Source: Deltaproteobacteria bacterium
GTDB lineage: Bacteria; Desulfobacterota; BSN033; WVXP01
Assembly: GCA_019308905.1 (NCBI GenBank)
Contig: JAFDHF010000007.1
Coordinates: forward strand, 6,533 to 70,532
DNA: 64,000 nucleotides
Reading direction: 5' to 3'
Shown: piece by piece, positions 126 through 61,660 of the stretch
How positions within the stretch are numbered: position 1 is the first letter of the stretch
How the letters are laid out: the number at the start of each line of letters is the position of its first letter
Position numbers and translations under genes: made by a program
The notes under the pieces: generated by a model
Told to the model about the DNA's origin: nothing
What the model saw: the letters and a program-made list of their open reading frames with translations, nothing else
Databases searched by the model: none

Positions 126-1208
126 CTAGATCCTTCTGAGGCTCTCCTTGTGCCAGCTGATCCTGACTCTTTCCCCTTCCCCGCGGCCGCCCCCTGTCCT
201 GACGCTCATCTCCCTCACATTGAGGGTCTTGTCCTTGCTGATCCTGACCTTGTATCTCTTTGTCTCTCCCACGTAGATCGTCTCTTCGATAACGCCGCTG
301 AGGGAGAAACCGTTGAAATCCTCACCGACAAAGAAGATCTTTTCCGGCCTGATGCAGAAGGTCACCTCTTTTCCCGGTACCGCCTCGCCGGTCCAGGGGA
401 TTCGATGTTTTGATCCGTCGCTGATCTGGAGGGTCACCTTTCCGCCTTGGCTCTCAATGACCTTGCCCTTGAGAAAGTTGGACTCTCCTATGAAACTGGC
501 GACGAACTGGTTTGCGGGCTTCTCATAGAGTTCGTCCGGCGTGCCGATCTGTTCTATCCTGCCCCGATCCATCACTGCGATCCTGTTCGACATGACCAGT
601 GCCTCCTCCTGGTCATGGGTGACATAGATCATGGTTCTTTTCAGCCGCGTGTGGATGTGCTTCAGCTCGAGCTGCATATGTTCCCTGAGCTTCTTGTCCA
701 GAGCGCCCAGGGGTTCGTCGAGAAGGAGCAGCGGAGGATCGAACACCAGGGCCCGTGCCAGGGCTATGCGCTGCTGCTGGCCGCCGCTCAGCTGTTTGGG
801 AAAGCGTTTCTCATATCCCTGCAGGCGGACCAGATCGAGGGCAGCTGCGACCCTGTCACGGATCTCATCCTTCTGAAACCTCCGCATCTTCAAGGGAAAT
901 GCGATGTTGTCGTAGATCGTCATGTGGGGGAAGAGGGCGTAGTTCTGGAAGACCATGCCGATATTCCGCTTTTCCGGGGGAAGGACGCTGATAGGCCTGT
1001 CCTGGAGGACCACTTCCCCCCTGGTTGGGAACTCAAAGCCGGCGATCATCAGAAGGATGGTGGTCTTGCCAGACCCGCTCGGGCCGAGGAGGGTGAGGAA
1101 CTCACCGTCACCGATATCGAGGGATACGTCGTCGACAGCCAGAACCTCGCCGAACCGCTTGCTCAGGTTCCTTAGCCGGAGAATAGGTTTCGTCTTGGAT
1201 GGGTTCAT
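126..1208 (-). CDS. ABC transporter ATP-binding protein, PotA/spermidine-putrescine type with C-terminal TOBE-like domain
   Basis: Walker [10 protein letters not shown], signature [15 protein letters not shown] and Walker B LLLLDEP. ATG at 1208 preceded by AGGAG. Starts 5 nt after the upstream permease stop. Confidence 0.93.
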
Positions 1209-1212
1209 GAGC

Positions 1213-2025
1213 CTACTCCTGAAGCTCGACTGCTTTTTTCTCTTTGCCCATGAATGAGAGGGCGATGATGGTACCGACTGCGGCCACTATGAAAACCGTA
1301 GAGGCTGCAGCCACCACGGGGTTGATCCGGAACTGAATCTCTGAAAACATCCGCAGAGGAAGAGTCATCTTTGTCGTACCGATAAGAAACATGGCGAGGA
1401 GCAACTCGTCAAGGGACTCGATGAAGCAGAAGACACCCGAGGCGATGATGCCGGGTTTTATCAGGGGCAGGGTGATGTACATGAAGGTTCTGAAAGCATC
1501 GGCCCCGAGGTTCCTGGATGCCATTTCCAGCGAGATATCGAAGCGGTAGAGATTGGCGGTAACCACCAGGATCACGTAGGGGACACATATGATCGTGTGG
1601 GCTATAACCATTCCAACAAGCGTCCCTATGAGATGAAGCCTTGCAAAGATCCCGTATACTGCAAAGGCCGTGACGATGACGGGAATCATCAGAGGGGAGA
1701 TAAAAAAGAGGTGGAGCAGCCTCTTGCCGGGCAGGATGCCCCTTACCAGGGCCAGGGAGGCAAGGGTTCCTATGACAAGGGAGACCGCGGTCGCGATAAA
1801 CGCGAGTTTCAAGCTGAAAAGCGTCGCCGCGGTCCAGCGATGGTCGGTGAAGAATTTCTGGTGCCAGTAGAGGGTGAAACCCTTTGGTGGAAAGACCAGA
1901 TACTTGGTCGTGCTGAAGGACATGGGCACCGCGAGGATGGTGGGAATAACCAGGAAGACGAAGACAGCCGCCACAAAGCACCCCAGAATGATTCTCCCGT
2001 AGTCTGTTTCCGGCCGATTTTTCAT
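1213..2025 (-). CDS. ABC transporter permease (PotC-like)
   Basis: Multi-TM protein of the binding-protein-dependent permease type. The ORF extends to 2064, but the ATG at 2025 follows GGAAGCGAGGAG (RBS) and lies after the upstream stop at 2077. Confidence 0.88.
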   Translation of the reverse strand: MKNRPETDYGRIILGCFVAAVFVFLVIPTILAVPMSFSTTKYLVFPPKGFTLYWHQKFFTDHRWTAATLFSLKLAFIATAVSLVIGTLASLALVRGILPGKRLLHLFFISPLMIPVIVTAFAVYGIFARLHLIGTLVGMVIAHTIICVPYVILVVTANLYRFDISLEMASRNLGADAFRTFMYITLPLIKPGIIASGVFCFIESLDELLLAMFLIGTTKMTLPLRMFSEIQFRINPVVAAASTVFIVAAVGTIIALSFMGKEKKAVELQE

Positions 2026-2076
2026 CTCCTCGCTTCCCCCCGGATTTCCCAGGCCTGTTTGCACCTGGGGTCTCGA

Positions 2077-2952
2077 CTAGTCCCTGTAGATCTTGTCCAG
2101 GCCGACGATCTTGTCGAAAATCAGGATCATGAGGATTGTCGTCACAAGGAGGACCACCACGATGGCCCCGGCAAAGTCCCAATTGATCAGGCGGTTGATC
2201 TGTTGGTCGATGAGCGTAGTAATCATGAGTGTCTTGGGGCCGCCCAGCAGGGCAGGGGTGATATAGAACCCCAGGGAGAGAATGAACACGAACATCACCC
2301 CGGCCCCCACACCGGGCAGACTCAGCGGAAAGGTGACCAGGGCAAAGGCCTTTACGGCATTGGCGCCGAGGTTCCGGGCGGCCCTGAGCAGATTCCTGTC
2401 GATGTTCTTCAACACGCTGTAGACGGGCAGAATCATGAACGGCAGCAGAATGTGGACCATCCCGAGAAGAACCGCGAATTCGGTGTAGAGCAGGTTGAGG
2501 GGCCTCTCTATGAGCCCGATGGATATGAGAAACCGGTTGAGGATTCCCTTTGTCTGGAGCAGGACGATCCACGCGTAAGATCGAACCAGAATGCTGGTGA
2601 AGAAGGGGAGCAGCACGCAGATCATCATGAGATTGGCTGTCTTCTGGCTCTTCAGGCCGGCCAGAAAGTAGGCTATTGGATAGCCCAGAAGAAAGCAGAT
2701 GACGGTAACTACCACCGCGACCCTGACGGTTCTCAACAGAATGTAAGTGTAGAGGGGTTCCCTGAAGAAGTGCCTGTAATGCTCCCAGGTGATGTGGCCG
2801 TTTTTCAGGATGCTTTCGGGGAAGAGTGTGACGAGAGGGTAGAGGTAGAATACACCCAGAAGGATGAACAGCGGTCCGGTGAGAAGAATGGACTGAAAAA
2901 GGGAGTACCTCGTTATCGACTCTCTGCCTACGAATCTTGATCTTACAGACAA
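2077..2952 (-). CDS. ABC transporter permease (PotB-like)
   Basis: Multi-TM permease with no ATG in the N-terminal region. The TTG at 2952 has AGGAGG 5 nt upstream. The GTG at 2973 is the maximal start but has no RBS. Confidence 0.85.
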   Translation of the reverse strand: MSVRSRFVGRESITRYSLFQSILLTGPLFILLGVFYLYPLVTLFPESILKNGHITWEHYRHFFREPLYTYILLRTVRVAVVVTVICFLLGYPIAYFLAGLKSQKTANLMMICVLLPFFTSILVRSYAWIVLLQTKGILNRFLISIGLIERPLNLLYTEFAVLLGMVHILLPFMILPVYSVLKNIDRNLLRAARNLGANAVKAFALVTFPLSLPGVGAGVMFVFILSLGFYITPALLGGPKTLMITTLIDQQINRLINWDFAGAIVVVLLVTTILMILIFDKIVGLDKIYRD

Positions 2953-3081
2953 CGGAACCTCCTGATTCGGCACCGGTCCGCCCTGCCGGGACGGCTCATG
3001 CGAGTGCGGGAAGATTCGGCGGGGAAAGAGGGGCAGGATTCGCTGCCCTCCCTCTTCCCCGGGTGGAGCCAGCGGACCGAG

Positions 3082-4179
3082 CTACTTGGCGATCCAGGTG
3101 TTCCACCTTTCATCGATTTCATCCATGTGGGAAAGCTGCCACTTCCCGTTTTTGACGCCGTAAAGGTTGATGAGCTTGCCGAAGTTGGCAGGGTAGGTGG
3201 CCAGATCCTTCTGCATGGAGGGGTGTATGTATCGCACAGCCTTCTTGTTGGTCCCGCTGTACCCCATATAGTTCGTGAACACGGCCTGCTGCTCGGGCCG
3301 ATTGCAGAAATCGATCAACCGCATGGCAGCCTCTTTCATGGGGGAATTCTTGACCACACAGTTGTAAGCCAGGAAATACAGCGCCTGGTTCCATTCGATT
3401 GCAACGGGTGCCCCGAGGCGCTTTGCCGTTTTGGCACGACCGTCGGTCGATACGGCCATGACCACCTCTCCGTCTATCAGGGCCTGCATGAGCTGTTCAC
3501 CGCTAGTGTACCAGACCTTTATGTGGGGTTTGATCTTGTCCATGATCTTGAAGGCTCGATCGAAGTCGAGGGGGAAGAGGTCGTCGGGGCTGACCCCTTC
3601 TGACATGAGGGCGATGGAGAGGTTGTCCGATGGGCCTCCCCAGTTGTGCATGGCTCGGGGGCCAGGGAACCTCTTTACGTCGAAGAAATCCTTCCAGCTC
3701 TTGGGTCGCTTTCCTTCGGGGAAGACCTTGGTGTTGTATGCCAGTACCACACATTCGAGGTACTGGGCCACCCCCCACTTCTTGAGTGAACCGGGGACGA
3801 GGTCCTTTGTGTGGGTGACGATGCCGTAGTCGATATCTTCGAGGTAACCCTTGTCGTAGTACTTCTGGTTGTACCCTTCGTAATCAGCCGAAATCATATC
3901 CCACTCGATATTTCCGCTTCTCATCATGGCATCGAGTTTGCCTCCCACCGAAACCCCGGCTTCCACGGCGACTACCTTTATGCCGGTCTCCTCGGTAAAG
4001 GGCTCAAAGAAGGCCTTTTCCTGGGCTTCGGTGATGCTCCCCCCCCAGGTTTGGACCACGATATGGTTCCGCCCCGCATGAGCGCTCGGCACAAAGCACC
4101 CGCCGGCCAGGACCAGGAGAAGAACCAGACAGGATACAAAAACACTACCGGGTGATACTCTTGGCCAGATCTTTTTCAT
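3082..4179 (-). CDS. Periplasmic/extracytoplasmic substrate-binding protein of the ABC importer (PotD/PotF-like family)
   Basis: N-terminal signal peptide (VFVSCLVLLLVLAGGC), about 365 aa, SBP-like composition, AAGGAGGA RBS. First gene of the SBP-permease-permease-ATPase set. Confidence 0.85.
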   Translation of the reverse strand: MKKIWPRVSPGSVFVSCLVLLLVLAGGCFVPSAHAGRNHIVVQTWGGSITEAQEKAFFEPFTEETGIKVVAVEAGVSVGGKLDAMMRSGNIEWDMISADYEGYNQKYYDKGYLEDIDYGIVTHTKDLVPGSLKKWGVAQYLECVVLAYNTKVFPEGKRPKSWKDFFDVKRFPGPRAMHNWGGPSDNLSIALMSEGVSPDDLFPLDFDRAFKIMDKIKPHIKVWYTSGEQLMQALIDGEVVMAVSTDGRAKTAKRLGAPVAIEWNQALYFLAYNCVVKNSPMKEAAMRLIDFCNRPEQQAVFTNYMGYSGTNKKAVRYIHPSMQKDLATYPANFGKLINLYGVKNGKWQLSHMDEIDERWNTWIAK

Positions 4180-4344: not shown

Positions 4345-5802
4345 CTAAGCCATCCTTTGGGCCTCGCGGTCGGCGGCCGCCAGTATGCGATCGAGCTCTG
4401 CAAGAACCTCCCTGGGCAGAGGCTCGGGGTGGTGGTTCTCATCGATTCGCTTGAATTCCTCGAGGGCCAGGGTTCTCGGATCGAGTAGCCTGCCCTGTCC
4501 GTCCTTCCTTCCCAGCAAGCGAGAGAGGCGAAAATCCCGTACGTGGTCGCAGGTGTGGTCCTCCATCAGGAAGTGTCCCCTGGGACCCACTTTCTCGATC
4601 ACGTCGAGAGCCATGTCGTATCCCTCGAATTCGAATCCGCGGAACAGGTCGTAGGCGGCCCGGCAGACCTCGTGGTCGAGGATCACCTGCTCGGGGTAGA
4701 GAACCATGGACCCTCCGAGCAGCCCCAGGTATCCGCAGATCTCTCCACCGCACAGGGGGATGAGGGCCGCACCCATTCCCGCCTCCATGCCGGACTGCCA
4801 GCCTATGTCGAGGGCGTCGCTGCTCACCCCCCCTCCCCCCAGGCTGGGCACACCCCAGGCATGGGCGAGTTGGACGGAAATCATGTTGACAGGCAACGGC
4901 ACCTCGCTGACATAGTCTCCGGTCCTGGGGTCCATGAGCGACACGAGGACCGAGTGAAACACAGGTGCTCCGGGGTAGGCCAACTGGATCAGCACCATGG
5001 CGCTCACCACCTCTGCATCGCCCGTGACGAGGGCCCCGAGGGGAGTGGCCGGTGCTGTCGACCCCATGGTGGTCATGGCCATGAAGCTGACAGGGATGCC
5101 TGCCTCTGCATAGACCAGGGCCGACTCGATCCCATCGGCATCCTGGGCCAGAGGCGCGATGGTGCATATGTTGGCGTTGATAGGGGGACGCCGTCGCAGC
5201 TCCACGCCGCTGCCGGCCACGACGGTAGCCATCTCGACTATGTAACGTGCCAGAGGGGCGAAAACCGTCGTGCCGCCCCGCACGTGCTTGAGCGTGTTGA
5301 CCAGACCTGCGTGACACTCGTGGAGAGGTGCTGTACGCCCGTGATCCTGGGCACTGACCATGGGCCAGAAAAAGCTGATCATGGGCAGGGCGTCGCAGAC
5401 ACGGGCCATCCGGGCCACGTCGTCCTTTCTGGAAGGTCTCTGCTTTCGGGTCCACAGGTCGACCACGTGGACCCCGCACCCGTCCGTGCAGAGGTAGGAC
5501 CGGCTCCCATCGAGGACCAGGTCGAAGCGTTCGTGTCGTCCTGCCAGGACAAATGACCGGGGCGCCGTGGACATGGCCTTGGTCACAAGGCCGGGCGGGA
5601 TGCGAACGATCTGTCTATCCATATCCACCAGGGCCCCGTGGTCGGAAAAAAGCTCGAGGGCGGTCCGGGAGGGAAAGTGGACACCCACCTCTTCCAGCAG
5701 GCGGAGCGTTCCGCCACGAAGGGTTTCGACCTGGGACTGGGTGAGCAGTTCCTTTTTCAGGGCGGAGACGAAGGGAACTATCTCCGGGGTTTCCGAATCC
5801 AT
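4345..5802 (-). CDS. MttB-superfamily (trimethylamine methyltransferase family) protein, non-pyrrolysine type (copy B)
   Basis: Full-length 485 aa uninterrupted ORF with typical family N-terminus (LLTQSQVETLRGGTLRLLEEVGV...) and central GSTAPATPLGALV segment. GAGGAGG RBS before the ATG at 5802. Confidence 0.88.
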   Translation of the reverse strand: MDSETPEIVPFVSALKKELLTQSQVETLRGGTLRLLEEVGVHFPSRTALELFSDHGALVDMDRQIVRIPPGLVTKAMSTAPRSFVLAGRHERFDLVLDGSRSYLCTDGCGVHVVDLWTRKQRPSRKDDVARMARVCDALPMISFFWPMVSAQDHGRTAPLHECHAGLVNTLKHVRGGTTVFAPLARYIVEMATVVAGSGVELRRRPPINANICTIAPLAQDADGIESALVYAEAGIPVSFMAMTTMGSTAPATPLGALVTGDAEVVSAMVLIQLAYPGAPVFHSVLVSLMDPRTGDYVSEVPLPVNMISVQLAHAWGVPSLGGGGVSSDALDIGWQSGMEAGMGAALIPLCGGEICGYLGLLGGSMVLYPEQVILDHEVCRAAYDLFRGFEFEGYDMALDVIEKVGPRGHFLMEDHTCDHVRDFRLSRLLGRKDGQGRLLDPRTLALEEFKRIDENHHPEPLPREVLAELDRILAAADREAQRMA

Positions 5803-6296: not shown

Positions 6297-8360
6297 CTAT
6301 TGTAGCTTTTCGATCCTCACCGGCACGGCCTTCAGAAGGGGGAAGCCCGTGACAGGATCGGTGACGCGATCATCTGTGAGAAGGTTTACATTGGCCTCGT
6401 CCCACCCGTGGGTGATCTGGAGGACACCCGGGAGGATGTCTTTTTCGCCCATAACCCTTGCCGGAATCTCAATGGAGCCCACCGTTGAGGTTACCTTTAC
6501 CCGTTGCCCTTCGGTGATTCCCATCCGGGCGGCATCGTCAGGATGGATCTCGACTTGCGGCACGGGGATGGATGCGCGAAACCGCGCAATATTACGGTAC
6601 CTCGAATGATAGTAGAGAGACTTCCTGGCTCCTGTGATAAGGATGAAGGGATAGTCGGGGTTCGAACGGCTCCGATAACGGGGGGGTCGGTATTCGGGTA
6701 GCTCAGGATGGCCCGATTCGCCTAAATACGCCGACGAGAACTCGAACTTTCCCGTGGGGGTTGGAAGAGGCCGATTTGTATACTTCCTGTATCTGAGGGG
6801 TCGATAGGTATATCCCTCTGGATGCCTTCTCAGTTCATCGAGGGATATGCCTGCCGGTTCCAGGATCCACTGGTTGACCTGCTCTTCGTTTTCCCAGGGA
6901 AAGTACCTCTCCCCGAAACCGAGCCGGCAGGCAAGATCCCGCCAGAAGGTGTACTCATCCCGGACACCGGGAATATCCAAAACCTTGGTCGTGAGGGTGA
7001 CAAGCTGGAGATGGGTATGGTAGTGAAGCTCAGATCTTTCGAGAAAGGATGCCGCAGGGAGGATGTAGTGGGCGAGCTTTGCACTCTCGGTCAGAAAGAG
7101 ATCTCTGAAAACCAGTAGATCCAACCGGGCAAATGCTCTTGCGACCTTTTGGGCATTCGGATTGGTGAGTACCGGGTTGGCTCCCGTTACGATCAGCCCC
7201 TTCAAAGGATAGCCGTCTGAGAAGAGAATCCGATCCATGGCAGTGAGGGAGTGACAGTCTTTGGTGTACCGGTAGAGAGTCGGATATTCTGCAGCACCTA
7301 TGGGCTCTTGCCCTTCCAGAGGGATCTCGTCGTAGAGTGTTAGGGTACGTCCTCCCATCGTCTCTGGCCAGGGGTCGCCCCCCTCGACATCGACCGCGCC
7401 GCAGAGTCCGCCCAGGCAGGCAACGGCTCTGACGGTGTCGAGCACATTGTCGTGGTGTTCCAGGCCGGTTCCGACATAACCGGCGACTCTCGGGCGGCTC
7501 GCAGCCAGCATTCCGCCGATCTGAAGGATTCTGGTCCGGTCGACTCCGGTCTGTCTCTCGACCCATTCGGGGGTACAGGTCCTGGCGTAACTTGCAAATC
7601 GATCAAATCCGACGGTATGGTTGTTTACGAAATGGCGATCGTAGTTTCCTGTTTCGATCAGATAGCGGGCTAGGCCCAGGGCGAGCGCGCCGTCCGTTCC
7701 TGGGAGGGGTTGAACAAAGATATCGGCCTTGCGGGCAATGGCGGTGCGGCGGGGATCGATGACCACGAGTTTTGCCCCTTTTTTCCTTCCCTCGGTGATC
7801 CTGCTCATAAAAGTGGGATGTGAGACAGGGGGATTCGATCCCCAGAGAATAATGAGGGCCGCCCTTTCGAAATCCGGGCACGGGTTCAGGTATCCCTGCA
7901 CCAGTCGGTAGGCGATGTAACGGGCGCTGAAGCAAACCGAGTCGGCGGAAAAGAAGTTCGGCGATCCAAAGGCATGGATAAAACGGCGGGCGTATTGCTC
8001 CTGCTGGAAGAAACCCACGGCCTCACCGGTCCAAACCCCCACTGATCTGGCCCCGTAATCTTCCTTGATGTCACGCATCCTGCCGGCGATCTCATCCATG
8101 GCCTGTTCGTATGAGATCTCCTCAAAGGTCCGGTCGGGTTTCCTCCTTAGAGGATTGAGGAGGCGGCGGGGATGGTAGACGAGATCTACCGCAGCACGCC
8201 CTTTGGCACAGATCAGTCCGCGGCTGGCCGGGTGGTCTTTGAACCCGCTGATTCTGTGTATCTTCCCGTGAGCGACATGGACATTGAGCCCGCAGCGCAT
8301 GTCACACTGGCGGCATAGGGTCTGAATCTCTCCGTTTGCGACAGCGGTCTTCGAGTTCAT
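6297..8360 (-). CDS. Molybdopterin (Mo/W-bis-PGD, MopB family) oxidoreductase, cytoplasmic, copy B
   Basis: N-terminal FS0 motif C16-x2-C19-x3-C23-x27-C51 and no twin-arginine leader. About 687 aa with a MopB C-terminal domain (ITHGW...PVTGFPLLKAVPVRIEK). ATG at 8360 with GAGAGG RBS; the ORF track begins at the TTG at 8366. Confidence 0.9.
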   Translation of the reverse strand: MNSKTAVANGEIQTLCRQCDMRCGLNVHVAHGKIHRISGFKDHPASRGLICAKGRAAVDLVYHPRRLLNPLRRKPDRTFEEISYEQAMDEIAGRMRDIKEDYGARSVGVWTGEAVGFFQQEQYARRFIHAFGSPNFFSADSVCFSARYIAYRLVQGYLNPCPDFERAALIILWGSNPPVSHPTFMSRITEGRKKGAKLVVIDPRRTAIARKADIFVQPLPGTDGALALGLARYLIETGNYDRHFVNNHTVGFDRFASYARTCTPEWVERQTGVDRTRILQIGGMLAASRPRVAGYVGTGLEHHDNVLDTVRAVACLGGLCGAVDVEGGDPWPETMGGRTLTLYDEIPLEGQEPIGAAEYPTLYRYTKDCHSLTAMDRILFSDGYPLKGLIVTGANPVLTNPNAQKVARAFARLDLLVFRDLFLTESAKLAHYILPAASFLERSELHYHTHLQLVTLTTKVLDIPGVRDEYTFWRDLACRLGFGERYFPWENEEQVNQWILEPAGISLDELRRHPEGYTYRPLRYRKYTNRPLPTPTGKFEFSSAYLGESGHPELPEYRPPRYRSRSNPDYPFILITGARKSLYYHSRYRNIARFRASIPVPQVEIHPDDAARMGITEGQRVKVTSTVGSIEIPARVMGEKDILPGVLQITHGWDEANVNLLTDDRVTDPVTGFPLLKAVPVRIEKLQ

Positions 8361-54720: not shown

Positions 54721-55089
54721 ATGAAGCCCGTATCCATTGAGGTCATCTCCAAGGTTCTTACCAGCTACTCTCAGTGCGGGGGCTGCGGTCTGATTTTTGA
54801 TAGGACGGGTCTCCGGGAAAAGGTCCGGATCATGGACGCGGAGGGATACCCCGAGGAGCTCAGGGAAGAACTGTGCAGACTCTCAGATTGGCTCGGGGAG
54901 CTTCTCTACCTCTACAGGCACCGGATTTCCATACGCATCATCGATGCCCAGTCTCTTGTCGGGATCTACAAGTGCCTTCGGTACGGAATCCGGGGCTACC
55001 CCGGCTTCATCGTGGACCGTCGCCACGCTTACGCCGGATGGGACAGGAAGAGGCTGGAGGGAATCATCGATTGCCTTATCAGGGCTTGA
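54721..55089 (+). CDS. Hypothetical small protein with a CGGCG motif (possibly thioredoxin-like fold)
   Basis: 122 aa ORF with protein-like composition. I recognise no family. Confidence 0.45.
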   Translation: MKPVSIEVISKVLTSYSQCGGCGLIFDRTGLREKVRIMDAEGYPEELREELCRLSDWLGELLYLYRHRISIRIIDAQSLVGIYKCLRYGIRGYPGFIVDRRHAYAGWDRKRLEGIIDCLIRA

Positions 55090-56134
55090 GAGCGACCGTG
55101 GTGAGAACTCCGTAATGATCCGAGGCATGGACACCGTCGACGGGACGGTCCAAGACGACCCTGCTTTCAAGGATCTGTTCGCTGTCAAAGGCAGAGTTCA
55201 GAAGGATATAGTCGATTCTCCGTGATTTTCTATCGTACTCTGCCCGCAAGCGGTCGTACACGGCTCTGGTTCCTCTACGAGACCGGCCTGAGATCTCCCA
55301 AAACCTGGTGTTCTCGTTGTTTTCACCATCCCAGGTAATCCCTGCCTTTTCCGGGTTGGCCACACGGTAGGTGTCCCAGAATCTTCCTTCCTCGAGGAGG
55401 CGGACCATGGGAGAGCTCTCCTCGGTCATGTTGAAGTCGCCGAGTAGGACAGTCGGCGCCGTGCCTGAGACGGTCTTCACAAAGTCGAGAATCCGCTCTA
55501 TCTCCATCTCCCGGCGCCGGAAGACCCGGCGCAGCGTGCGCAGACGTTTCTCGTAATCCCTCTTGGAGATCCTCTTTTCGTCACGCCAGCGTTCCATAAG
55601 GTCGAGGATCTCCCTTCCCTCTGGAGGTCCTGGATAGGTATGGGTATGGACGAGATACAGGGGGCTGCCCCGCACCAGTGCGACTCCGGCCATTACATGG
55701 CGGGAGTCGGTAAAGTGGAAGCAGAAGAGGTCTCCGTAGATTCCAAAGGGATCACCCGAGATCTGCCTAGCCCCGGCCCGTCGGAGACGGAACTCCCTTT
55801 TGGCAAGGATTACCAGGCCCATCTTGAGGTTGACGGGAATCCCCAGGCCTCCGATCTTAATACCCCCATTGTAGACCTTATGGATCTCGTCGTAGCCCAG
55901 ATCCCTGGCGAGCCTCCTGCCGTAGCCGGGGATGGGGTTTGCCTCCTGGACGGCGATGAAATCGGGCCGCAGCCCGGTGAGTTCCGAGAGGAGGATCTGG
56001 TAACGTTTTTCCCTTCTGCCGGAGGGTTCGAGAGGTCTCATCCACAGGATACCCCTCTCTTCGAGACCGAACCAGACGTTGAAAGTGAGGATCGAAAGGG
56101 TGTGGGAAGAGGAAGCGAGGGGCGAAGCTTTCAT
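55079..56134 (-). CDS. Endonuclease/exonuclease/phosphatase (EEP) family protein
   Basis: Motifs LTFNVW, DFIAVQEAN, LLGDFN and SDHYGV. Confidence 0.85.
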   Translation of the reverse strand: MKASPLASSSHTLSILTFNVWFGLEERGILWMRPLEPSGRREKRYQILLSELTGLRPDFIAVQEANPIPGYGRRLARDLGYDEIHKVYNGGIKIGGLGIPVNLKMGLVILAKREFRLRRAGARQISGDPFGIYGDLFCFHFTDSRHVMAGVALVRGSPLYLVHTHTYPGPPEGREILDLMERWRDEKRISKRDYEKRLRTLRRVFRRREMEIERILDFVKTVSGTAPTVLLGDFNMTEESSPMVRLLEEGRFWDTYRVANPEKAGITWDGENNENTRFWEISGRSRRGTRAVYDRLRAEYDRKSRRIDYILLNSAFDSEQILESRVVLDRPVDGVHASDHYGVLTTVALKP

Positions 56135-56182: not shown

Positions 56183-57160
56183 TTACACGAAGAGGGCATC
56201 GGCCACCCTCTCCACCATGGGTAGTCCCTTGACCTCCTTCTCGAAGAGCGGTGCCTCCCCGCAGAAGTTGTCAAAGGAGCGGGTAATCTCTTCTCTGTAT
56301 CTCTCCTGCATGGCGATCCGATTACGAATGAACTCGGCCGTATTTTCGTCTATTTCGGATTTATCGATCACCTCATTGACGATGACCCCTCCGATGGGGA
56401 TGCCGAAATCCTTGAACCATCCGATGAAACGTTTGATCACGGCTATGGGGAGGCTTTCGAGGAGGGTCACGAAGAAGAAGGCGGTCTTTTCCTGGTCGGT
56501 GAGGAGTCCCCTCATCTTCTCGATTCTGTCCCGGAAGGTGATCAGATAGTCGAGCAGGGGATCCCGTTCATCCTCCGGTTTCTTCTTTCGGAAAGAGAGG
56601 CTGAGTCTCATCTGCCGGGCTTCTTCGCGGCTCTTGTACATCTTGTTCACCCAGAGGGCGTAGACCTTTGACATCCCGAGGAGCCTCCTGGCGTTGGCCG
56701 TTGGGGCCGTATCGAAGATGTACACCTCGTATTCGTCCTCAAAGATGATATTGATCATATTCTCGAACATGGCTGATTCTTCAAAGGCGGGATTCATGGT
56801 GGCTGACTCCACGAAATCCTCGGCCTTGGTGGGTATATCGGCGAATTTCAGAAACCAGGCAATCTTGTCCTTGATGTCGTTCTTGGATCTCTGAATGGTT
56901 TCCGACGTGTCGATTTCACTCGCATACAGGTTGGGCGCCCCTTTCACGGCGACCGGTTTGCCGAATACGTTCTGCTCGAGGAGGTTTGACAGGCTGTGTA
57001 CCGGGTTGGTGGAGGCGAGGAGTGTCTTCTTCCCCTGTCGAGAAAACCACAGCGCCGTCGCACCTGCGACTACGGTCTTGCCTACCCCCCCCTTGCCGCC
57101 GAAATACAGATACCGGAGATTTGGGTGGTCGTGGAAGAACTCTTTCATGGTGAAGTTCAT
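56183..57160 (-). CDS. ArsA/GET3-family P-loop ATPase, half-size (copy 1)
   Basis: Deviant Walker A GGKGGVGKT, STNPVHSLS (DPAHS-like) and FDTAPTANARRLL (DTAPTGH-like). Its ATG at 57160 overlaps the stop of copy 2 (ATGA). Confidence 0.88.
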   Translation of the reverse strand: MNFTMKEFFHDHPNLRYLYFGGKGGVGKTVVAGATALWFSRQGKKTLLASTNPVHSLSNLLEQNVFGKPVAVKGAPNLYASEIDTSETIQRSKNDIKDKIAWFLKFADIPTKAEDFVESATMNPAFEESAMFENMINIIFEDEYEVYIFDTAPTANARRLLGMSKVYALWVNKMYKSREEARQMRLSLSFRKKKPEDERDPLLDYLITFRDRIEKMRGLLTDQEKTAFFFVTLLESLPIAVIKRFIGWFKDFGIPIGGVIVNEVIDKSEIDENTAEFIRNRIAMQERYREEITRSFDNFCGEAPLFEKEVKGLPMVERVADALFV

Positions 57161-58140
57161 GTCCTCTCCTCCCCGAACATGACCCTGGCCATCCGTTCTA
57201 TGGTCTCGAGGCCTTTGATCTCGTTGTCGAACTCCGGGACCATGGCGAGAACCCTGCCGCCAAACCTCTCTCTTATGGTGTTCAGACACGTCCTCTGCAT
57301 CTCGATCCTGTTTCTCAGGTACTCCGGAATTCTCTCCTTCTCCAGGTCCTGGGAGATGACTCGATTGACAAGATAGCCGGTCAGAGGAACGTTGAATTTT
57401 GCAAAGAGCCCAGCCGCTTTGATCGTATCATCGATCACCATGTCTTCTGGGGTGAGAACAAAATAGAAGGCCGTCTTCTCCGTATCGGTCATGATTCTGG
57501 AGGAGGCGCCGATCCTGTTCTTGATGTAGAGAAGCTCTTCATAGATTGCGTCTTCCTCGGTCTGTTTTTCCCGCCGCATGGTTGCTATGACCGAGTCATA
57601 CTCTCTCATCTGTTCTCTCAGGCCGGTGATCTTCTGTAGCCATGCGTCGTAGATCGACCCCATGCTGAGGTAGTAGAGGGCGTGGCCCAGGGGGACCAGA
57701 TCATAGATATAGTAGTCATACCCTCCCTGGATCACGATATCGACTACGGCGTCGAATATGGCGCTCTCCTCCATGGCAGGTTCGGCAGAGGCAGCCTCTA
57801 TGTAATGTTCGATCTCCTCTGGAATCTTCTCCATTCCGTACATGTCGATGATTTTCTGGCGGATTTCTTTCTGATAGTCCTTGATCCGGCGGTCCGCGTC
57901 GATCTCCTGTGCATAGAGGTTCGGGATGATCTCGACGGCTCCCTTGCCGAAAATGTCTCTTTCGAAGATATCGCTCAGCGAAGCCTGGGGATCCACTGAG
58001 AATACGAGAACCCTCTTGCCCTGTTTTGCCAGCCAATAGGCCGTGGCCGCCGAGAACGTGGTCTTGCCCAGCCCTCCCTTCCCGCCGTACATTACATACC
58101 TGCGATTGGGATATTTCTGAAACATCTCAGCCAGAGACAT
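57157..58140 (-). CDS. ArsA/GET3-family P-loop ATPase, half-size (copy 2)
   Basis: Motifs GGKGGLGKTT, SVDPQASLS and YDLVPLGHALYYL. AAAGGAGG RBS. Confidence 0.88.
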   Translation of the reverse strand: MSLAEMFQKYPNRRYVMYGGKGGLGKTTFSAATAYWLAKQGKRVLVFSVDPQASLSDIFERDIFGKGAVEIIPNLYAQEIDADRRIKDYQKEIRQKIIDMYGMEKIPEEIEHYIEAASAEPAMEESAIFDAVVDIVIQGGYDYYIYDLVPLGHALYYLSMGSIYDAWLQKITGLREQMREYDSVIATMRREKQTEEDAIYEELLYIKNRIGASSRIMTDTEKTAFYFVLTPEDMVIDDTIKAAGLFAKFNVPLTGYLVNRVISQDLEKERIPEYLRNRIEMQRTCLNTIRERFGGRVLAMVPEFDNEIKGLETIERMARVMFGEERT

Positions 58141-58294
58141 GCCAACCTCCTTTGAACCTCATCGGAGAGACGGGAAACCCTCCGAGTGGGCTGGAAGCCC
58201 GTGCGGAATCTCCCGGGCCTCTCTCTGCTGATGGGGGAACCGTCGTGGGCAAGCCGATTCACACGGGCAGGAAGACGGTCCTTGTCTTCCGCTT

Positions 58295-58588
58295 CTAGTA
58301 CATAGAATCCATCAGATCCTTTTCCCTGAGCATCCGCCGTTTCCAGGTGGAGATCTGGGGAACAACATAAGGCAGGAGCCGAAGGGAGTAATAGGGCGGC
58401 AGCACGGGAACTCCGAGCATGTCACCCATGGTGATGAGGATGAAGAGGTGCTCCATGCTGGACCGCGTCTTAAGAGCCTGACGGGCCATACCGTGGGTTG
58501 CCATGCCGTAAGTGAAATCCCTGAAAAATCCAACAAACTTGCTACCCAAGCTCTCCTTTTCCTTTTCAGGAGGTGCCTTTTCCGCCAT
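58295..58588 (-). CDS. Small hypothetical protein, paralogue of 58637-58897
   Basis: 97 aa. Shares DF.YG...HGM ... LF.L...G...G.P..P..Y.LRL.PY ... WKRR.L with its neighbour. Confidence 0.6.
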   Translation of the reverse strand: MAEKAPPEKEKESLGSKFVGFFRDFTYGMATHGMARQALKTRSSMEHLFILITMGDMLGVPVLPPYYSLRLLPYVVPQISTWKRRMLREKDLMDSMY

Positions 58589-58636
58589 CTCAGCTTTTCC
58601 CCCTCATCGTCAGAGTATGCCGACACGATCGAGTGA

Positions 58637-58897
58637 TCAATCCCGCACCATGTCGAAGATATCCCTCGGCTTGAGAACTCTCCTCTTCCACCGGGGGAAC
58701 CGCCCAGCACAGTATGGTACGAGTCTCAAATGGTAGATCCCGGGAAAGAGTGGCAGACCGACTGTTTCCCCGAGTACGAGGAGCGTGAAAAGGTCCTCCG
58801 CGTCGGCCTTCTCTTCGTGGACTTCCTGTACCATACCGTGAAGAAGGAAGCCGTATAGAAAATCCTTGACCCCTTGAAGCAGTTCGTGCCTCTTCAT
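58637..58897 (-). CDS. Small hypothetical protein, paralogue of 58295-58588
   Basis: 86 aa with the same conserved pattern as its neighbour. Confidence 0.6.
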   Translation of the reverse strand: MKRHELLQGVKDFLYGFLLHGMVQEVHEEKADAEDLFTLLVLGETVGLPLFPGIYHLRLVPYCAGRFPRWKRRVLKPRDIFDMVRD

Positions 58898-58988
58898 CCG
58901 GCTTTTTCCATGCCCCCTCAGGTAGCCGCTGGAACGCTCTCCGTCAATAGAATAAAACTTATTGAAATCAAATGCAAGATTGAGGCAA

Positions 58989-59006
58989 GGGGGGGTGTCC
59001 CCCCCC
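58989..59006 (-). terminator. G7/C8 hairpin downstream of cstA
   Basis: GGGGGGG-TGT-CCCCCCCC, 28 nt after the cstA stop. On the minus strand it is followed by TTGCCTCAATCTT, a weak T tract. Confidence 0.45.
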
Positions 59007-59033
59007 TTTCAGGTCCCTTTGATCCAGCCGTCC

Positions 59034-60707
59034 TCAGGCCTTCGCTTCTGCCGCTTCGGCCGGGGTCTTGCCGTATTCGGCCTTATACTTCTGGAAGGCC
59101 TTGTACCCGTCCCAGGCGAGGATTACGGCAAGGATGATGAGCAGGATGCCGCAGCCGCCGGACAGCAGATTCCCGAAGATCTTTCCCCCCGTGACCTTGC
59201 CCGTGAAAACCGCAGGAAGGAGCTTGAAGAAGGATGTGTAGAACAGGGCTGCCACGGTGGTCGCGTACATGAAGAACATGGGGTAGATGGCGATCCTGTA
59301 GTTCTTCCCCTTGGAGACCAGGTAAAGAGTGACCAGAAGCAGGGCCAGGGATGCCATCATCTGATTGGCTCCTCCGAAAAGAACCCAGATGTAGAGCCAA
59401 GTGCCGGTCTTGATCAGGACGAAAGCGATGATCAGCGCGGCGACCGTCGCCACGTGGTGGTTCTTGGCAATGCCGATCTTGTCTCCCAGCAGTTCGATGG
59501 TGGCAACCTTCATGAATCGGAAAACCAGGTTGACGATGGTGAGTGCGAGGATGAGGATCATTGCCCCGGAGACCGACTTTGCATAGGAGGCGGGTATTCC
59601 GATGGCCCCCATGGCCCCCCCCAGGCCTGCCGTAAAGATGCCCACGGGGTTCTTGAGTGCTGCCAGGTACCCGGCCTTATCGGCAAATGCCGTGGCACAC
59701 ACGATCATGGCGATAATTGCGATGGTAAACTCCGCGAACATGGCACCGGCCGTTACGGGCCTCACGTCCATTTCGTTCTCTATCTGACGGGATGTGGCCG
59801 TACTCGAGACGAGACTGTGCCACCCGGAGATAGATCCGCACGCTATGGTGACGAAAAGAAGCGGCCAGAGGGGGCCTATGCCGATGCTCCAGTTGGTAAA
59901 GGCTGGAAGGGTCATCGGCTTGGCGCCCACGAGGATGCCGAGAACACCGGCGATGATGCCGAAATAGACGACATAGACCGAGGAGTAGTTGTATGGCTGG
60001 ATGAACATCCAGACCGGGAGGATGGCGCTGAAGTATGCGAAGATGCAGATGCACACGAGAAACGTCGTGTAGGAGGCTTTGATGGGCAGGTAGTTCCCGA
60101 TCCAGATCGATGCAAAAATCAGGACAATCGCTAGAATCGTCGTGGCGATGATATTGACCTTTGCCCGATATATCATCTGGCCCACCAGAAAACTGACCCC
60201 CACCACCACGAGCAGTGGAAATGGAAGGGCTGGATTGCCCACGAGGCCCTTTGTGATGACATGGCCAAAGGCGGCGGCCACGAGCAACAGATAGAAATAG
60301 ATAAAGGTCAGAAGAATGCCCCTGGCCCGGGGAGATATCAGCTTGTAGCTGATTGCGCCGAAGGTCTCCCCATCGTGCCGGATCGACACCATGGCACTGG
60401 AATAGTCGTGGATCCATCCGATGAAGAGGACCCCTAATCCCAGCCAGAGCATAGTGGGCAGCCATCCCCATTGGAGGGCCACGATGGGACCGATAATAGG
60501 AGCCGCACCTGCGATTGAATTGAGCTGAAATCCGAAAAGGACGTTCTTGTTGGCCGGCATGAAGTCGACACCGTCCATATACATCTTGGCAGGTGTGGCC
60601 TTGTTGGGATCCGCCTTGTAGACGTTGCGGCTCACCCATCGCGCATACACCCAATAGCCGACGATGACGATGACAGCCCAGAAAACGAGTACCCACAGAG
60701 AGTTCAT
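59034..60707 (-). CDS. cstA: Carbon starvation protein A (CstA-family peptide/pyruvate transporter)
   Basis: 557 aa polytopic membrane protein with a CstA-type N-terminus (VIVIVGYWVYARWVSRNVY). AAGGAAAGGAGGA RBS. Confidence 0.9.
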   Translation of the reverse strand: MNSLWVLVFWAVIVIVGYWVYARWVSRNVYKADPNKATPAKMYMDGVDFMPANKNVLFGFQLNSIAGAAPIIGPIVALQWGWLPTMLWLGLGVLFIGWIHDYSSAMVSIRHDGETFGAISYKLISPRARGILLTFIYFYLLLVAAAFGHVITKGLVGNPALPFPLLVVVGVSFLVGQMIYRAKVNIIATTILAIVLIFASIWIGNYLPIKASYTTFLVCICIFAYFSAILPVWMFIQPYNYSSVYVVYFGIIAGVLGILVGAKPMTLPAFTNWSIGIGPLWPLLFVTIACGSISGWHSLVSSTATSRQIENEMDVRPVTAGAMFAEFTIAIIAMIVCATAFADKAGYLAALKNPVGIFTAGLGGAMGAIGIPASYAKSVSGAMILILALTIVNLVFRFMKVATIELLGDKIGIAKNHHVATVAALIIAFVLIKTGTWLYIWVLFGGANQMMASLALLLVTLYLVSKGKNYRIAIYPMFFMYATTVAALFYTSFFKLLPAVFTGKVTGGKIFGNLLSGGCGILLIILAVILAWDGYKAFQKYKAEYGKTPAEAAEAKA

Positions 60708-60913
60708 CTTTCAATCCTCCTTTCCTTCGACGCCTTGCAACAAAGCTCGGTAAAGGGAAACCAGATTGAACCCGCCGGGGAATTACTCCCCTTTCTTTAC
60801 GGAACCCTGCTTCAGGGCGAGAGCCAACCAAAGGGAGACCCATCACCTCCTTCTTCCTGATTTTACCGAGACAACCGGCCTTTCCCCGCCCCCACAGGGA
60901 ACAACAAAAGGTA

Positions 60914-60942
60914 TCGTAAAGCAGAATTTGAAAGTTGTCAAT
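60914..60942 (-). promoter_or_regulatory. Sigma70-type promoter of cstA
   Basis: On the minus strand: TTGACA (60942-60937), 17 nt spacer, TACGAT (60919-60914). Implies a leader of about 200 nt. Confidence 0.5.
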
Positions 60943-61141
60943 GATTGTGTTACCTTATGGCTCGATCATCCGTCCATGGGGGTCGATCCAGGGGAACGTC
61001 TTCGGGTCATGGGATCCATCGCCCGTCTGACGGGCAAAAGGTGGCCTGGGACGCCTCTTCCGTTGGCTTCCACGGGTGGTCGTCATGGGGAAGCCGCAAT
61101 CAGGATTTGTTCCATGCCAAGTAGATGCGGAGGAAGGATGG

Positions 61142-61660
61142 ATGGAAGGTCTAAAGACCGTTGCAGAGTTGATGGCCGTCGCGGCTCGGACCGCTCCAAA
61201 AAGTGCCGGCCAGGATTTTGTGGAGATCAGGATTCTTACGGGTGATGAGCTTCTGAAGCTGGCAGAAGGGATGGTCCGTTTCGGTGAGGAGAGGGGGAAA
61301 CGGAACTTCGACCGCGACGCAAGAAACGTTCGGGACAGTGAGGTTGTGGTTCTCATCGGCCTTAAAGACGCCAGGGTACCCGGTCTCGACTGTGGTGCGT
61401 GTGGCTATCCCACATGCAAGGCCTTTGAGAAAGCCGAGGTGGTGGACGTGGAGTTCAAAGGCCCGCTGTGTGCTTTCCGTCTGCTGGATATGGGGATTGC
61501 TCTTGGATCTGCCGTCAAGACGGCAGGGCTCCTCAACGCGGACAACCGGATCATGTATCGCATCGGGACCGTGGCTCGCAGCATGGGCCTTTGCGACTGG
61601 GACTACGTGATGGGTATCCCCCTGTCGGCCACGGGCAAAAGCATCTACTTCGATCGGTAA
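61142..61660 (+). CDS. DUF2148-type ferredoxin-domain protein
   Basis: GLDCGACGYPTCKAF cluster motif. The ATG at 61142 follows GGAGGAAGG. The maximal ORF starts at the GTG at 61076. Confidence 0.7.
   Translation: MEGLKTVAELMAVAARTAPKSAGQDFVEIRILTGDELLKLAEGMVRFGEERGKRNFDRDARNVRDSEVVVLIGLKDARVPGLDCGACGYPTCKAFEKAEVVDVEFKGPLCAFRLLDMGIALGSAVKTAGLLNADNRIMYRIGTVARSMGLCDWDYVMGIPLSATGKSIYFDR

Follow-up and report, generated by a model that had tools for sequence, protein, structure and literature searches.

Why should two ATPases of the ArsA/Get3 family be encoded side by side, behind a pair of small proteins and a permease of the CstA family? The question is raised by a locus in the genome of a Deltaproteobacteria bacterium (GenBank assembly GCA_019308905.1, contig JAFDHF010000007.1), of which we analysed one stretch of 64,000 nucleotides (positions 6,533 to 70,532 of the forward strand), referred to here as the window. 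Among the open reading frames (ORFs) of the window, the gene order cstA, cstX1, cstX2, ars1, ars2 was found on the minus strand. These five genes (56183-60707) almost certainly form a single operon that belongs to the cstA-cstX-arsA-homologue class described in 2010 by Castillo and Saier (PMC2963123).

A previous reading of the same DNA, made without database searches (hereafter the sequence-only reading), had singled out the four genes behind cstA as a module that it did not recognise. The elements it described were all found: two genes for ArsA/Get3-family ATPases of about 325 amino acids (aa), in which the ATG of ars2 and the TGA of ars1 overlap as ATGA, and, upstream of them, two small ORFs of 86 and 97 aa, which are paralogues of each other (39% identity over 72 residues, E 2e-22). 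That they belong to a conserved unit without a link to arsenic also proved correct, but the unit has five genes rather than four, with cstA as the conserved partner. Nor is it unrecognised, as it is the operon type of the 2010 paper, and its small proteins belong to the family DUF7990 (PF25952). The remark that no ars genes lie nearby holds for the nine neighbouring ORFs that were scanned, which is as far as it reaches.

Composition and conservation of the operon

Castillo and Saier (Int J Microbiol 2010:187373; PMC2963123) identified cstA-cstX-(cstY)-arsA-homologue operons by genome comparison. According to their paper, cstA occurs with arsA homologues in 26 cases, 24 of which also have cstX. 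CstX is called a protein of about 90 aa with a single transmembrane segment (TMS), and the CstA-linked ArsA homologues consist of one domain, measure about 330 aa and sometimes occur as adjacent pairs, including one in Symbiobacterium thermophilum ('Sth'). From the congruence of phylogenetic trees, it was proposed there that the energy for CstA comes from the ArsA homologue, with CstX linking the two. The operon in the window resembles those described in that text: besides a CstA permease, it encodes CstX proteins close to 90 aa in length and, side by side, two ArsA homologues that have one domain and some 330 aa each, and no ars genes accompany them among the ORFs scanned. It differs from them in having two tandem CstX paralogues. 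One of the related loci that we collected, L035 from S. thermophilum, has the order cstA-CstX-ars1-ars2 and corresponds in kind to the published 'Sth' pair.

Related loci were obtained by scanning one genome per species with CstX2, which gave 575 confirmed stretches among 600 scanned; about 1,100 are estimated to exist in roughly 185,000 species genomes. Locus content was determined by BLAST of all stop-to-stop frames against six proteins of the window, and the locus counts given here refer to the best-scoring 80 of the 575 stretches. These 80 loci span at least seven phyla and come from Desulfobacterota, Chloroflexota, Methylomirabilota/NC10, Bacillota (including Symbiobacterium and Aneurinibacillus), Actinomycetota, and alpha-, beta- and gammaproteobacteria. 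Wherever at least 400 nt of sequence followed cstX, ars1 was found there (76/76), and both ATPase genes were present in 67/67 loci whose downstream sequence extended to 2.2 kb or more. The small genes thus do have homologues beside ArsA-like genes in other organisms, a point on which the sequence-only reading had let its module depend. On the opposite side, cstA was located upstream and on the same strand in 53 of the 64 loci with at least 3.5 kb of upstream sequence. The small genes formed a tandem pair in 55 of the 80 loci, and a further seven loci had an additional copy at some other place.

The genes flanking this set are variable. No shared sixth gene was found past ars2 among 40 downstream ORFs from 23 loci, and the genes upstream of cstX in loci without cstA (16 ORFs from eight loci) were unrelated to one another, indicating that the unit is cstA-cstX(1-2)-ars1-ars2. 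Within the unit, the soluble parts are under strong constraint across phyla: relatives of CstX2 are 65-94% identical to it, those of Ars1 63-87% and those of Ars2 61-90%, compared with only 39-86% for CstA.

A simpler form of the operon was observed in four distant loci from the phylum of the window (L124-L127). In all four, cstA is followed by a gene for a divergent CstX and then by a single ATPase gene, with overlaps of a few bases between the genes, as in L125. The distant CstX proteins (90-100 aa) showed about 32-42% identity by BLAST in three of the loci and were detectable only with a hidden Markov model (HMM) in the fourth. The single ATPase has a length of 300-309 aa and showed 26-31% identity; it retains the switch I motif SIDPAHN and has a DTPPTG motif. 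Because SIDPAHN is kept in the single ATPase, the two-ATPase form seems to have arisen by duplication from a simpler system with a homodimer and to have become asymmetric.

Co-occurrence with cstA, which the sequence-only reading had proposed as a check, was assessed in 401 genomes drawn evenly from the phylum of the window, all with a completeness of 90% or more. Of these genomes, 63 gave a match to the CstX profile and 212 to CstA (PF02554). Cross-reading of the two tables revealed CstA in 60 of the 63 genomes with CstX, compared with 152 of the 338 genomes without CstX (45%). All 50 genomes with a main-type CstX (E <= 1e-42) also had CstA, and in at least 27 of these 50 the two are encoded on the same contig within about 2 kb. 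Among the control genomes, only that of Haloferax volcanii gave matches to both CstA and the CstX-related model. The split Pfam match of the linked CstA (residues 1-355 and about 405-560) was considered as a marker for this association and was dropped, since the same split was seen in genomes lacking CstX.

The ATPases Ars1 and Ars2

Ars1 and Ars2 share 36% identity (E 7e-69). They score 218.5 and 217.1 bits, respectively, against TIGR00345 (GET3/ArsA/TRC40; cut-off 135), a model that covers ArsA as well, so that the match stands for subfamily membership and not for Get3 function. With TIGR04291, the model for true ArsA, whose cut-off is 650 bits, they reached only 90.0 and 93.1 bits. For both subunits, the best matches among solved structures were archaeal Get3 proteins (3ug6/3ug7 and 3zq6), with E values of 1e-51 to 1e-58 over the full length; Ars1 matched 3ug6 at E 1e-58 and 3zq6 at E 3e-57. 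These outranked Chlamydomonas ARSA1, E. coli ArsA (1f48, E 1e-27 to 1e-32), and eukaryotic Get3/TRC40. The hydropathy maximum over 19 residues was 1.03 for Ars1 and 1.65 for Ars2, in the latter case at residue 228 in a core strand region.

The sequence-only reading had quoted the metal and client-site motifs correctly, YDLVPLGHALYYL for Ars1 and DTAPTANARRLL for Ars2, and had called them degenerated. This interpretation did not hold, as the motifs are invariant and subunit-specific across phyla. We counted them in 74 Ars1-type and 69 Ars2-type aligned sequences, comprising those of the window and all matches from the related loci that cover more than 250 residues. In Ars1, the switch II motif YDLVPLGHALYYL (DLVPLGH) is present in 74/74 sequences; the Asp of switch I (SVDPQAS) is kept in 72/74, the remaining two being a gap and a garbled fragment; and the P-loop reads GGKGGLGKTT in 59/74. 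In Ars2, Asn takes the place of this Asp (STNPVHS), switch II reads FDTAPTAN(A/T)RRLL, represented in the window by DTAPTANARRLL, and the P-loop is GGKGGVGKTV, each of them in 69/69 sequences. Motifs that are fixed in this way, and differ between the subunits, point to specialisation and not to decay. In the 2010 paper, the Asp of the SxD motif in single-domain homologues is said to be one that 'can be substituted only by N' (PMC2963123); the Asp/Asn and switch II asymmetry tallied here, as a subunit-specific and invariant feature, goes beyond that text.

The switch I Asn of Ars2 aligns with the sole position at which two deposited sequences of one Get3 homologue differ, 7spy (STNPAHN) and 7spz (STDPAHN). 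An Asp-to-Asn exchange at this position is the standard hydrolysis-deficient mutant of Get3. Judged by these motifs, Ars1 is likely to be the catalytic subunit and Ars2 a hydrolysis-impaired one. The P-loops vary in a further respect. In nucleoside triphosphatases (NTPases) of this class, the nucleotide bound by one partner is contacted in trans by the first Lys in the P-loop (KGGxGK) of the other. Ars1 lacks this Lys (GGGGGVGKTT or GGAGGVGKTT) in 12 proteobacterial loci (L048, L050, L056, L061, L069, L072, L075, L078, L079, L081, L082, and L088), and Ars2 retains KGGVGKT in 69/69 sequences. Loss of the Lys from Ars1 is what would be expected if the Ars2 site need not hydrolyse ATP.

No conserved Cys column was found in the 74 Ars1-type or the 69 Ars2-type sequences, and each of the two window proteins contains a single Cys. 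The metalloid site of ArsA and the CxxC bridge of Get3 are therefore both excluded. Like ArsA (E. coli R773, 1f48), the window has P-loop ATPases of family PF02374 with two homologous nucleotide-binding units, and in ArsA, too, the two sites are functionally unequal. In contrast to ArsA, where the halves are fused into a protein of about 580 aa, the units in the window are encoded by separate genes and lack the Cys triad, and the intact DTAPTGHT of ArsA is altered in both of them (DLVPLGHA and DTAPTANA).

The likeness to Get3/TRC40, especially to the archaeal proteins 3ug6/3ug7 and 3zq6, extends to the length and to the layout of P-loop, switch I, and switch II. Unlike Get3, which is a symmetric homodimer, the window encodes two fixed and unequal paralogues, which predicts a heterodimer. 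Its Ars2 naturally carries the Asn that was introduced into 7spy by engineering, and there is no CxxC, a motif that archaeal Get3 is not known to have either. The genes are accompanied by those for a permease and DUF7990 proteins instead of Get1/2-type receptors. Another pair of adjacent genes for ATPases of the Get3/ArsA fold is known from Mycobacterium tuberculosis, where BagA and BagB are thought to work together. The corresponding models match both window ATPases weakly (NF053622, 48-52 bits versus 400; NF053621, 27-33 bits versus 521), and we know of no link between BagAB and either cstA or DUF7990.

The DUF7990 proteins and the intergenic regions

A search of a collection of 5.8 billion proteins returned 5,462 homologues of CstX2 at E <= 0.01. 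The precomputed domain PF25952 is assigned to the 100%-identical cluster representative and to all 120 among the CstX2 matches listed. The nearest clusters in the protein atlas are named 'DUF7990 domain-containing protein', and 99-100% of their members carry PF25952. Among the curated models searched, the only one that detected the small proteins was NF041419 (cory-CC-star), with E values of 1e-9 and 1.3e-8 (the latter for CstX1) over about 57 core residues. The scores, 34.7 and 38.3 bits, stay below the 80-bit cut-off, and the two sequences terminate with ...DSMY and ...MVRD instead of Cys-Cys. Thus, they are distant relatives of the cory-CC-star proteins and not members of that family.

An alignment of 16 CstX sequences from multiple phyla has 22 invariant columns and a near-identical core, YGMAxH ... 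SMEHLFILITMGDLLGVPILPPYYSLRLLPYVVPQISTWKRRMLREKDL. His32 and Glu46 are invariant in this alignment, and His47, Met29, and Met45 are nearly so. The Kyte-Doolittle maximum over 19 residues is 1.48 for CstX2 and 1.68 for CstX1, values that would be borderline for a membrane span. The stretch concerned lies near the C-terminal half; it contains an acidic residue (Asp in at least 90% of the aligned sequences, Glu in CstX1) and the invariant P61 in a G-x-P turn. With the 16-row alignment as input, AlphaFold2 modelled CstX2 alone as an all-helical protein (residues 15-40, 42-57, 65-86, and 89-96), with a mean predicted local distance difference test (pLDDT) score of 54.5 and a predicted template-modelling (pTM) score of 0.27. 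No solved structure was found that matches CstX by sequence (best E 0.72), and none was found for this CstA either. The start of cstX2 is uncertain because the N-terminal extension of its orthologues is variable and charged and because one public record uses a TTG at codon 14 (window position 58550), which gives a protein of 84 instead of 97 aa.

Natural fusions of CstX with Ars1 were detected in two long proteins, P0133 (414 aa) and P0142 (421 aa), and in three shorter or garbled forms; P0121 and P0122 are fusions of CstX with CstX. No fusion of CstA with CstX was present among the 35 matches of a search for longer CstX relatives. When P0133 was modelled with AlphaFold2 (40 rows, 5 of them covering CstX), the ATPase domain was confident. 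The model is uninformative on docking because the CstX part, residues 19-93, stayed below a pLDDT of 50.

The intergenic spacers measure 136 nt (cstA-cstX1), 48 nt (cstX1-cstX2), and 154 nt (cstX2-ars1), the last of which ends in a strong AGGAGG ribosome-binding site. The Shine-Dalgarno sequence AGGAGGTT is invariant in the window and in its two closest relatives, L011 and L012, and the remainder of this spacer is variable. The sequence-only reading had noticed a tight hairpin just behind the second small ORF and had suggested that it could set differential stoichiometry. The hairpin is present, and it is real yet unremarkable, with no stability beyond chance. The first 50 nt of the cstX2-ars1 spacer fold with -13.8 kcal/mol (z = -0.6 compared with shuffled sequences), and the 160-nt stretch 58141-58300 gave z = -0.73, with a minimum-energy fold that does not include the GGAAGAC/GTCTTCC stem. 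The hairpin is not followed by a T-run and was not called by the terminator scan; its sequence is not kept in L011 and L012, each of which has another stem nearby. A regulatory role was therefore discarded as unsupported, on the grounds of the fold z-scores, the lack of conservation, and the lack of a terminator call. Of 42 spacers with lengths of 40-400 nt, one from the window and 41 from related loci, eight open with a stem-loop at z < -2, so that a stem at the start of the spacer recurs in some relatives and is not general. A stronger stem than this hairpin was noticed in the spacer between cstA and cstX1 (G8-ACA-C7). It is followed by a moderately T-rich stretch and was not called by the terminator scan.

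A consensus scan of the region upstream of cstA gave a sigma-70-like match (10 of 12 positions), which is a weak candidate for the operon promoter, as three such sites were found in this region compared with 2.2 expected from shuffled sequences. At the other end of the operon, ars2 is followed by a gene of the endonuclease/exonuclease/phosphatase (EEP) family. Among the related loci, this gene was found again only in the closest relative L012 and, therefore, it is probably outside the module. The positions of all features, including the neighbouring genes upstream of the operon and selected genes from other loci, are compiled in Table 1.

Table 1. Positions of the operon genes, sequence elements and neighbouring genes in the window, and of selected genes in other loci (coordinates of the respective locus).
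Feature	Position	Strand	Description
cstA	59034-60707	-	CstA-family permease, 557 aa, first gene of the operon; PF02554, E 7.8e-116, two matched stretches; 11 hydropathy peaks >1.6
cstX1 (small ORF A)	58637-58897	-	86 aa, divergent DUF7990 paralogue
cstX2 (small ORF B)	58295-58588	-	97 aa, highly conserved DUF7990/CstX protein
ars1	57157-58140	-	Get3/ArsA-like ATPase, 327 aa; PF02374, E 2e-66
ars2	56183-57160	-	Get3/ArsA-like ATPase, 325 aa; PF02374, E about 1e-66
Hairpin GGAAGAC-N7-GTCTTCC	58270-58290	-	7-bp stem, 4 nt past the cstX2 stop codon
Stem-loop G8-ACA-C7	58989-59006	-	28 nt past the stop codon of cstA, inside the cstA-cstX1 spacer (136 nt)
Shine-Dalgarno sequence AGGAGGTT	58144-58151	-	Precedes the ars1 ATG
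Sigma-70-like match TTGACA-17-TACGAT	60913-60941	-	About 200 nt upstream of cstA; weak promoter candidate
EEP-family gene	55079-56134	-	PF03372, E 3.7e-16; 48 nt downstream of ars2
DUF2148 ferredoxin-domain protein gene	61076-61660	+	Upstream of the operon; PF09918, E 7e-31
Open frame of 762 aa	61712-64000	-	Leaves the window; reads like an amino-acid permease with a cytoplasmic C-terminal extension
L125 cstA	238-1947		Three-gene form
L125 small gene	1944-2222		Three-gene form
L125 ATPase gene	2198-3127		Three-gene form
L100 feoB	548-2476		Orphan DUF7990 locus
L100 small gene	2480-2788		DUF7990 paralogue
L114 small gene	4439-4786		DUF7990 paralogue
L114 nikR	4839-5258		Orphan DUF7990 locus

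Possible role of the ATPase pair in CstA transport

As the most likely role of the module, which we put at even chances or slightly below, we propose that an asymmetric heterodimer of Ars1 and Ars2, tethered by CstX, drives or gates CstA, as was also proposed in 2010 from the congruence of trees. What is observed is which genes are present, in which order, how they co-occur, and how the motifs of the two ATPases differ; from this we infer all contacts between the proteins, what is transported and in which direction, and whether ATP powers the process or only regulates it. Ars1 and Ars2 would form an obligate asymmetric heterodimer of the Get3/ArsA type. The catalytic site would be complete in Ars1, which has the switch I Asp, and Ars2 would bind nucleotide and hydrolyse it poorly because Asn replaces that Asp. 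CstX1 and CstX2 may be helical adaptors, built from a near-invariant core of hydrophobic helix, Pro-rich loop and helix and from a basic WKRR segment; the core and the WKRR segment would tether the ATPase dimer to CstA or to the adjacent membrane. We favour this adaptor function over one as a client. Binding and hydrolysis of ATP would then drive or gate transport by CstA. The parallel is ArsA, through which ArsB, a secondary carrier, becomes a pump driven by ATP: the ATPases of the window, too, would dock on such a carrier and make it ATP-driven. Unlike the ArsAB system, the permease is CstA, not ArsB or Acr3, and an extra family of small adaptors is present.

Several observations weigh against this proposal. 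The locus counts are biased toward close relatives of the query and do not represent all of DUF7990. Even among these loci, cstA is not found within 6 kb in 11 of 64 (Thermoflexus, NC10, and some Chloroflexota), so the linkage is not absolute. All five genomes that were checked because their cstX-ars cluster has no adjacent cstA do carry cstA elsewhere, a result that is weak given that CstA is common anyway (212/401 genomes of the sample and 7/14 control genomes). Three of the 63 genomes with DUF7990 (G179, G304, and G248, each 97% complete) have no CstA match; their DUF7990 proteins are lower-scoring paralogues only. Every fusion protein is a singleton, and as the genes are adjacent, the fusions could be explained by read-through or by assembly artefacts. 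The closest solved relatives of the ATPases are archaeal Get3 proteins and not ArsA, which would fit a chaperone role equally well. Finally, no CstA or ArsA-like gene was found within about 4.5 kb at any of 25 orphan DUF7990 loci, which were taken from the lower-scoring CstX matches in the phylum sample. These orphan paralogues contradict the statement of the 2010 paper (PMC2963123) that cstX is never found without cstA. They also leave room for a broader role of the DUF7990 fold, which we treat as a lead only because each genomic context is confined to one lineage.

The similarity to archaeal Get3 belongs to the main alternative, which we consider unlikely, albeit to be reckoned with: Ars1 and Ars2 would be a bacterial Get3-type chaperone that takes up the hydrophobic segment of CstX, or segments of CstA, for delivery to the membrane or assembly in it, and CstX would be its client, or a receptor comparable to Get1/Get2 that acts through its basic WKRR helix. 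Both ATPases exceed the cut-off of TIGR00345, and the archaeal Get3 structures rank well ahead of ArsA 1f48. The low-confidence model of CstX alone is what would be expected of a partner-dependent protein, and a hydrolysis-impaired subunit could retain a client for longer. The hydrophobic stretch of CstX can be read in both directions. Its hydropathy is borderline, and in the 2010 paper CstX is called a single-TMS protein (PMC2963123); however, the stretch is short, is broken by an acidic residue and P61, and has a hydropathy at or below the transmembrane threshold. The 19-residue hydropathy maxima of the ATPases themselves, 1.03 and 1.65, also weigh against a chaperone, and with no conserved Cys there is no zinc bridge of the Get3 CxxC type. 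Moreover, a chaperone made from two genes for one client of 90 aa, in an operon with one permease and across many phyla, would be less economical than a pair of transporter subunits. One could also imagine that the four genes act independently of CstA and that the adjacency of cstA is incidental. The 11 loci without a nearby cstA, whose upstream genes are unrelated, would agree with this, as would the stronger conservation of CstX and the ATPases compared with CstA. What makes it highly improbable is that cstA lies directly upstream on the same strand in the other 53 loci, that CstA is present in each of the 50 genomes carrying a main-type CstX, compared with 45% of those without CstX, that cstA was located elsewhere in 5/5 unlinked cases, and that the order cstA-cstX-ATPase recurs in 4/4 distant loci with a single ATPase.

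The orphan paralogues suggest yet another possibility, in which DUF7990 is a small metal-handling or transporter-accessory protein and the ATPases, as a SIMIBI pair like CooC, HypB or UreG, load or regulate a metal-dependent step coupled to a CstA-type permease. In three of the 25 orphan loci (L099 in genome G304, L100 in G179, and L103 in G281), a paralogue with 53-56% identity to CstX2 is encoded directly downstream of full-length feoB, itself a GTPase-permease fusion; the gaps are 3, 3, and 187 nt, and a gene with a MoCF_biosynth domain follows. In six others (L101, L112, L114, L120, L122, and L123), a paralogue with 43-47% identity lies directly upstream of nikR. Genes for a metal ABC transporter (ABC-3) and a NifU-like protein, the latter beside the paralogue of L118, also occur among the neighbours, and His32, Glu46, His47, Met29, and Met45 of CstX might, speculatively, serve as ligands. 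All feoB cases, however, belong to one family (f3) and all nikR cases to another (f35), so that these heterogeneous, lineage-confined contexts may reflect a few local events. Two orphan loci adjoin a DUF169-CoaE fusion gene and two, one of them L118, adjoin hexapeptide-transferase and radical-SAM genes; other neighbours are unrelated and encode glycosyltransferases, an acyl-CoA dehydrogenase, PhoU, and toxin-antitoxin proteins. As the ATPases have no conserved Cys and the operon of the window contains no metal-related gene, we regard a role in metal handling as improbable. A frame of 335 aa ('unk335') beside the nikR-linked paralogues, which had appeared to be a conserved partner of orphan paralogues, was discarded because it merely runs antisense to a SIS+CBS gene, the actual gene being encoded on the opposite strand.

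If the proposal that Ars1 and Ars2 act on CstA is carried further, the operon may represent an uncharacterised class of primary-active or ATP-gated transporters, consisting of a CstA carrier, DUF7990 adaptors, and a Get3-like heterodimer of obligate asymmetry, in which one ATP site is live and the other is dead by nature (Asp-to-Asn), with DUF7990 serving as a general module for coupling permeases to P-loop NTPases. We consider this wider generalisation possible but rather doubtful. If true, the general coupling function would explain the presence of paralogues directly downstream of feoB.

Our literature searches returned no experimental test of a cstA-cstX-ATPase operon, of CstX, or of DUF7990, and the locus in the window is a further instance of a known, experimentally uncharacterised operon type. 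The cluster is widespread, and the conservation of its soluble parts between phyla is unusually high. Carriers of the CstA family transport peptides or pyruvate. If the ATPase pair indeed drives or gates CstA, this would be the second independent case in which an ATPase of the ArsA/Get3 fold has taken over a secondary carrier, and it would bear on the uptake of CstA-family substrates under starvation.

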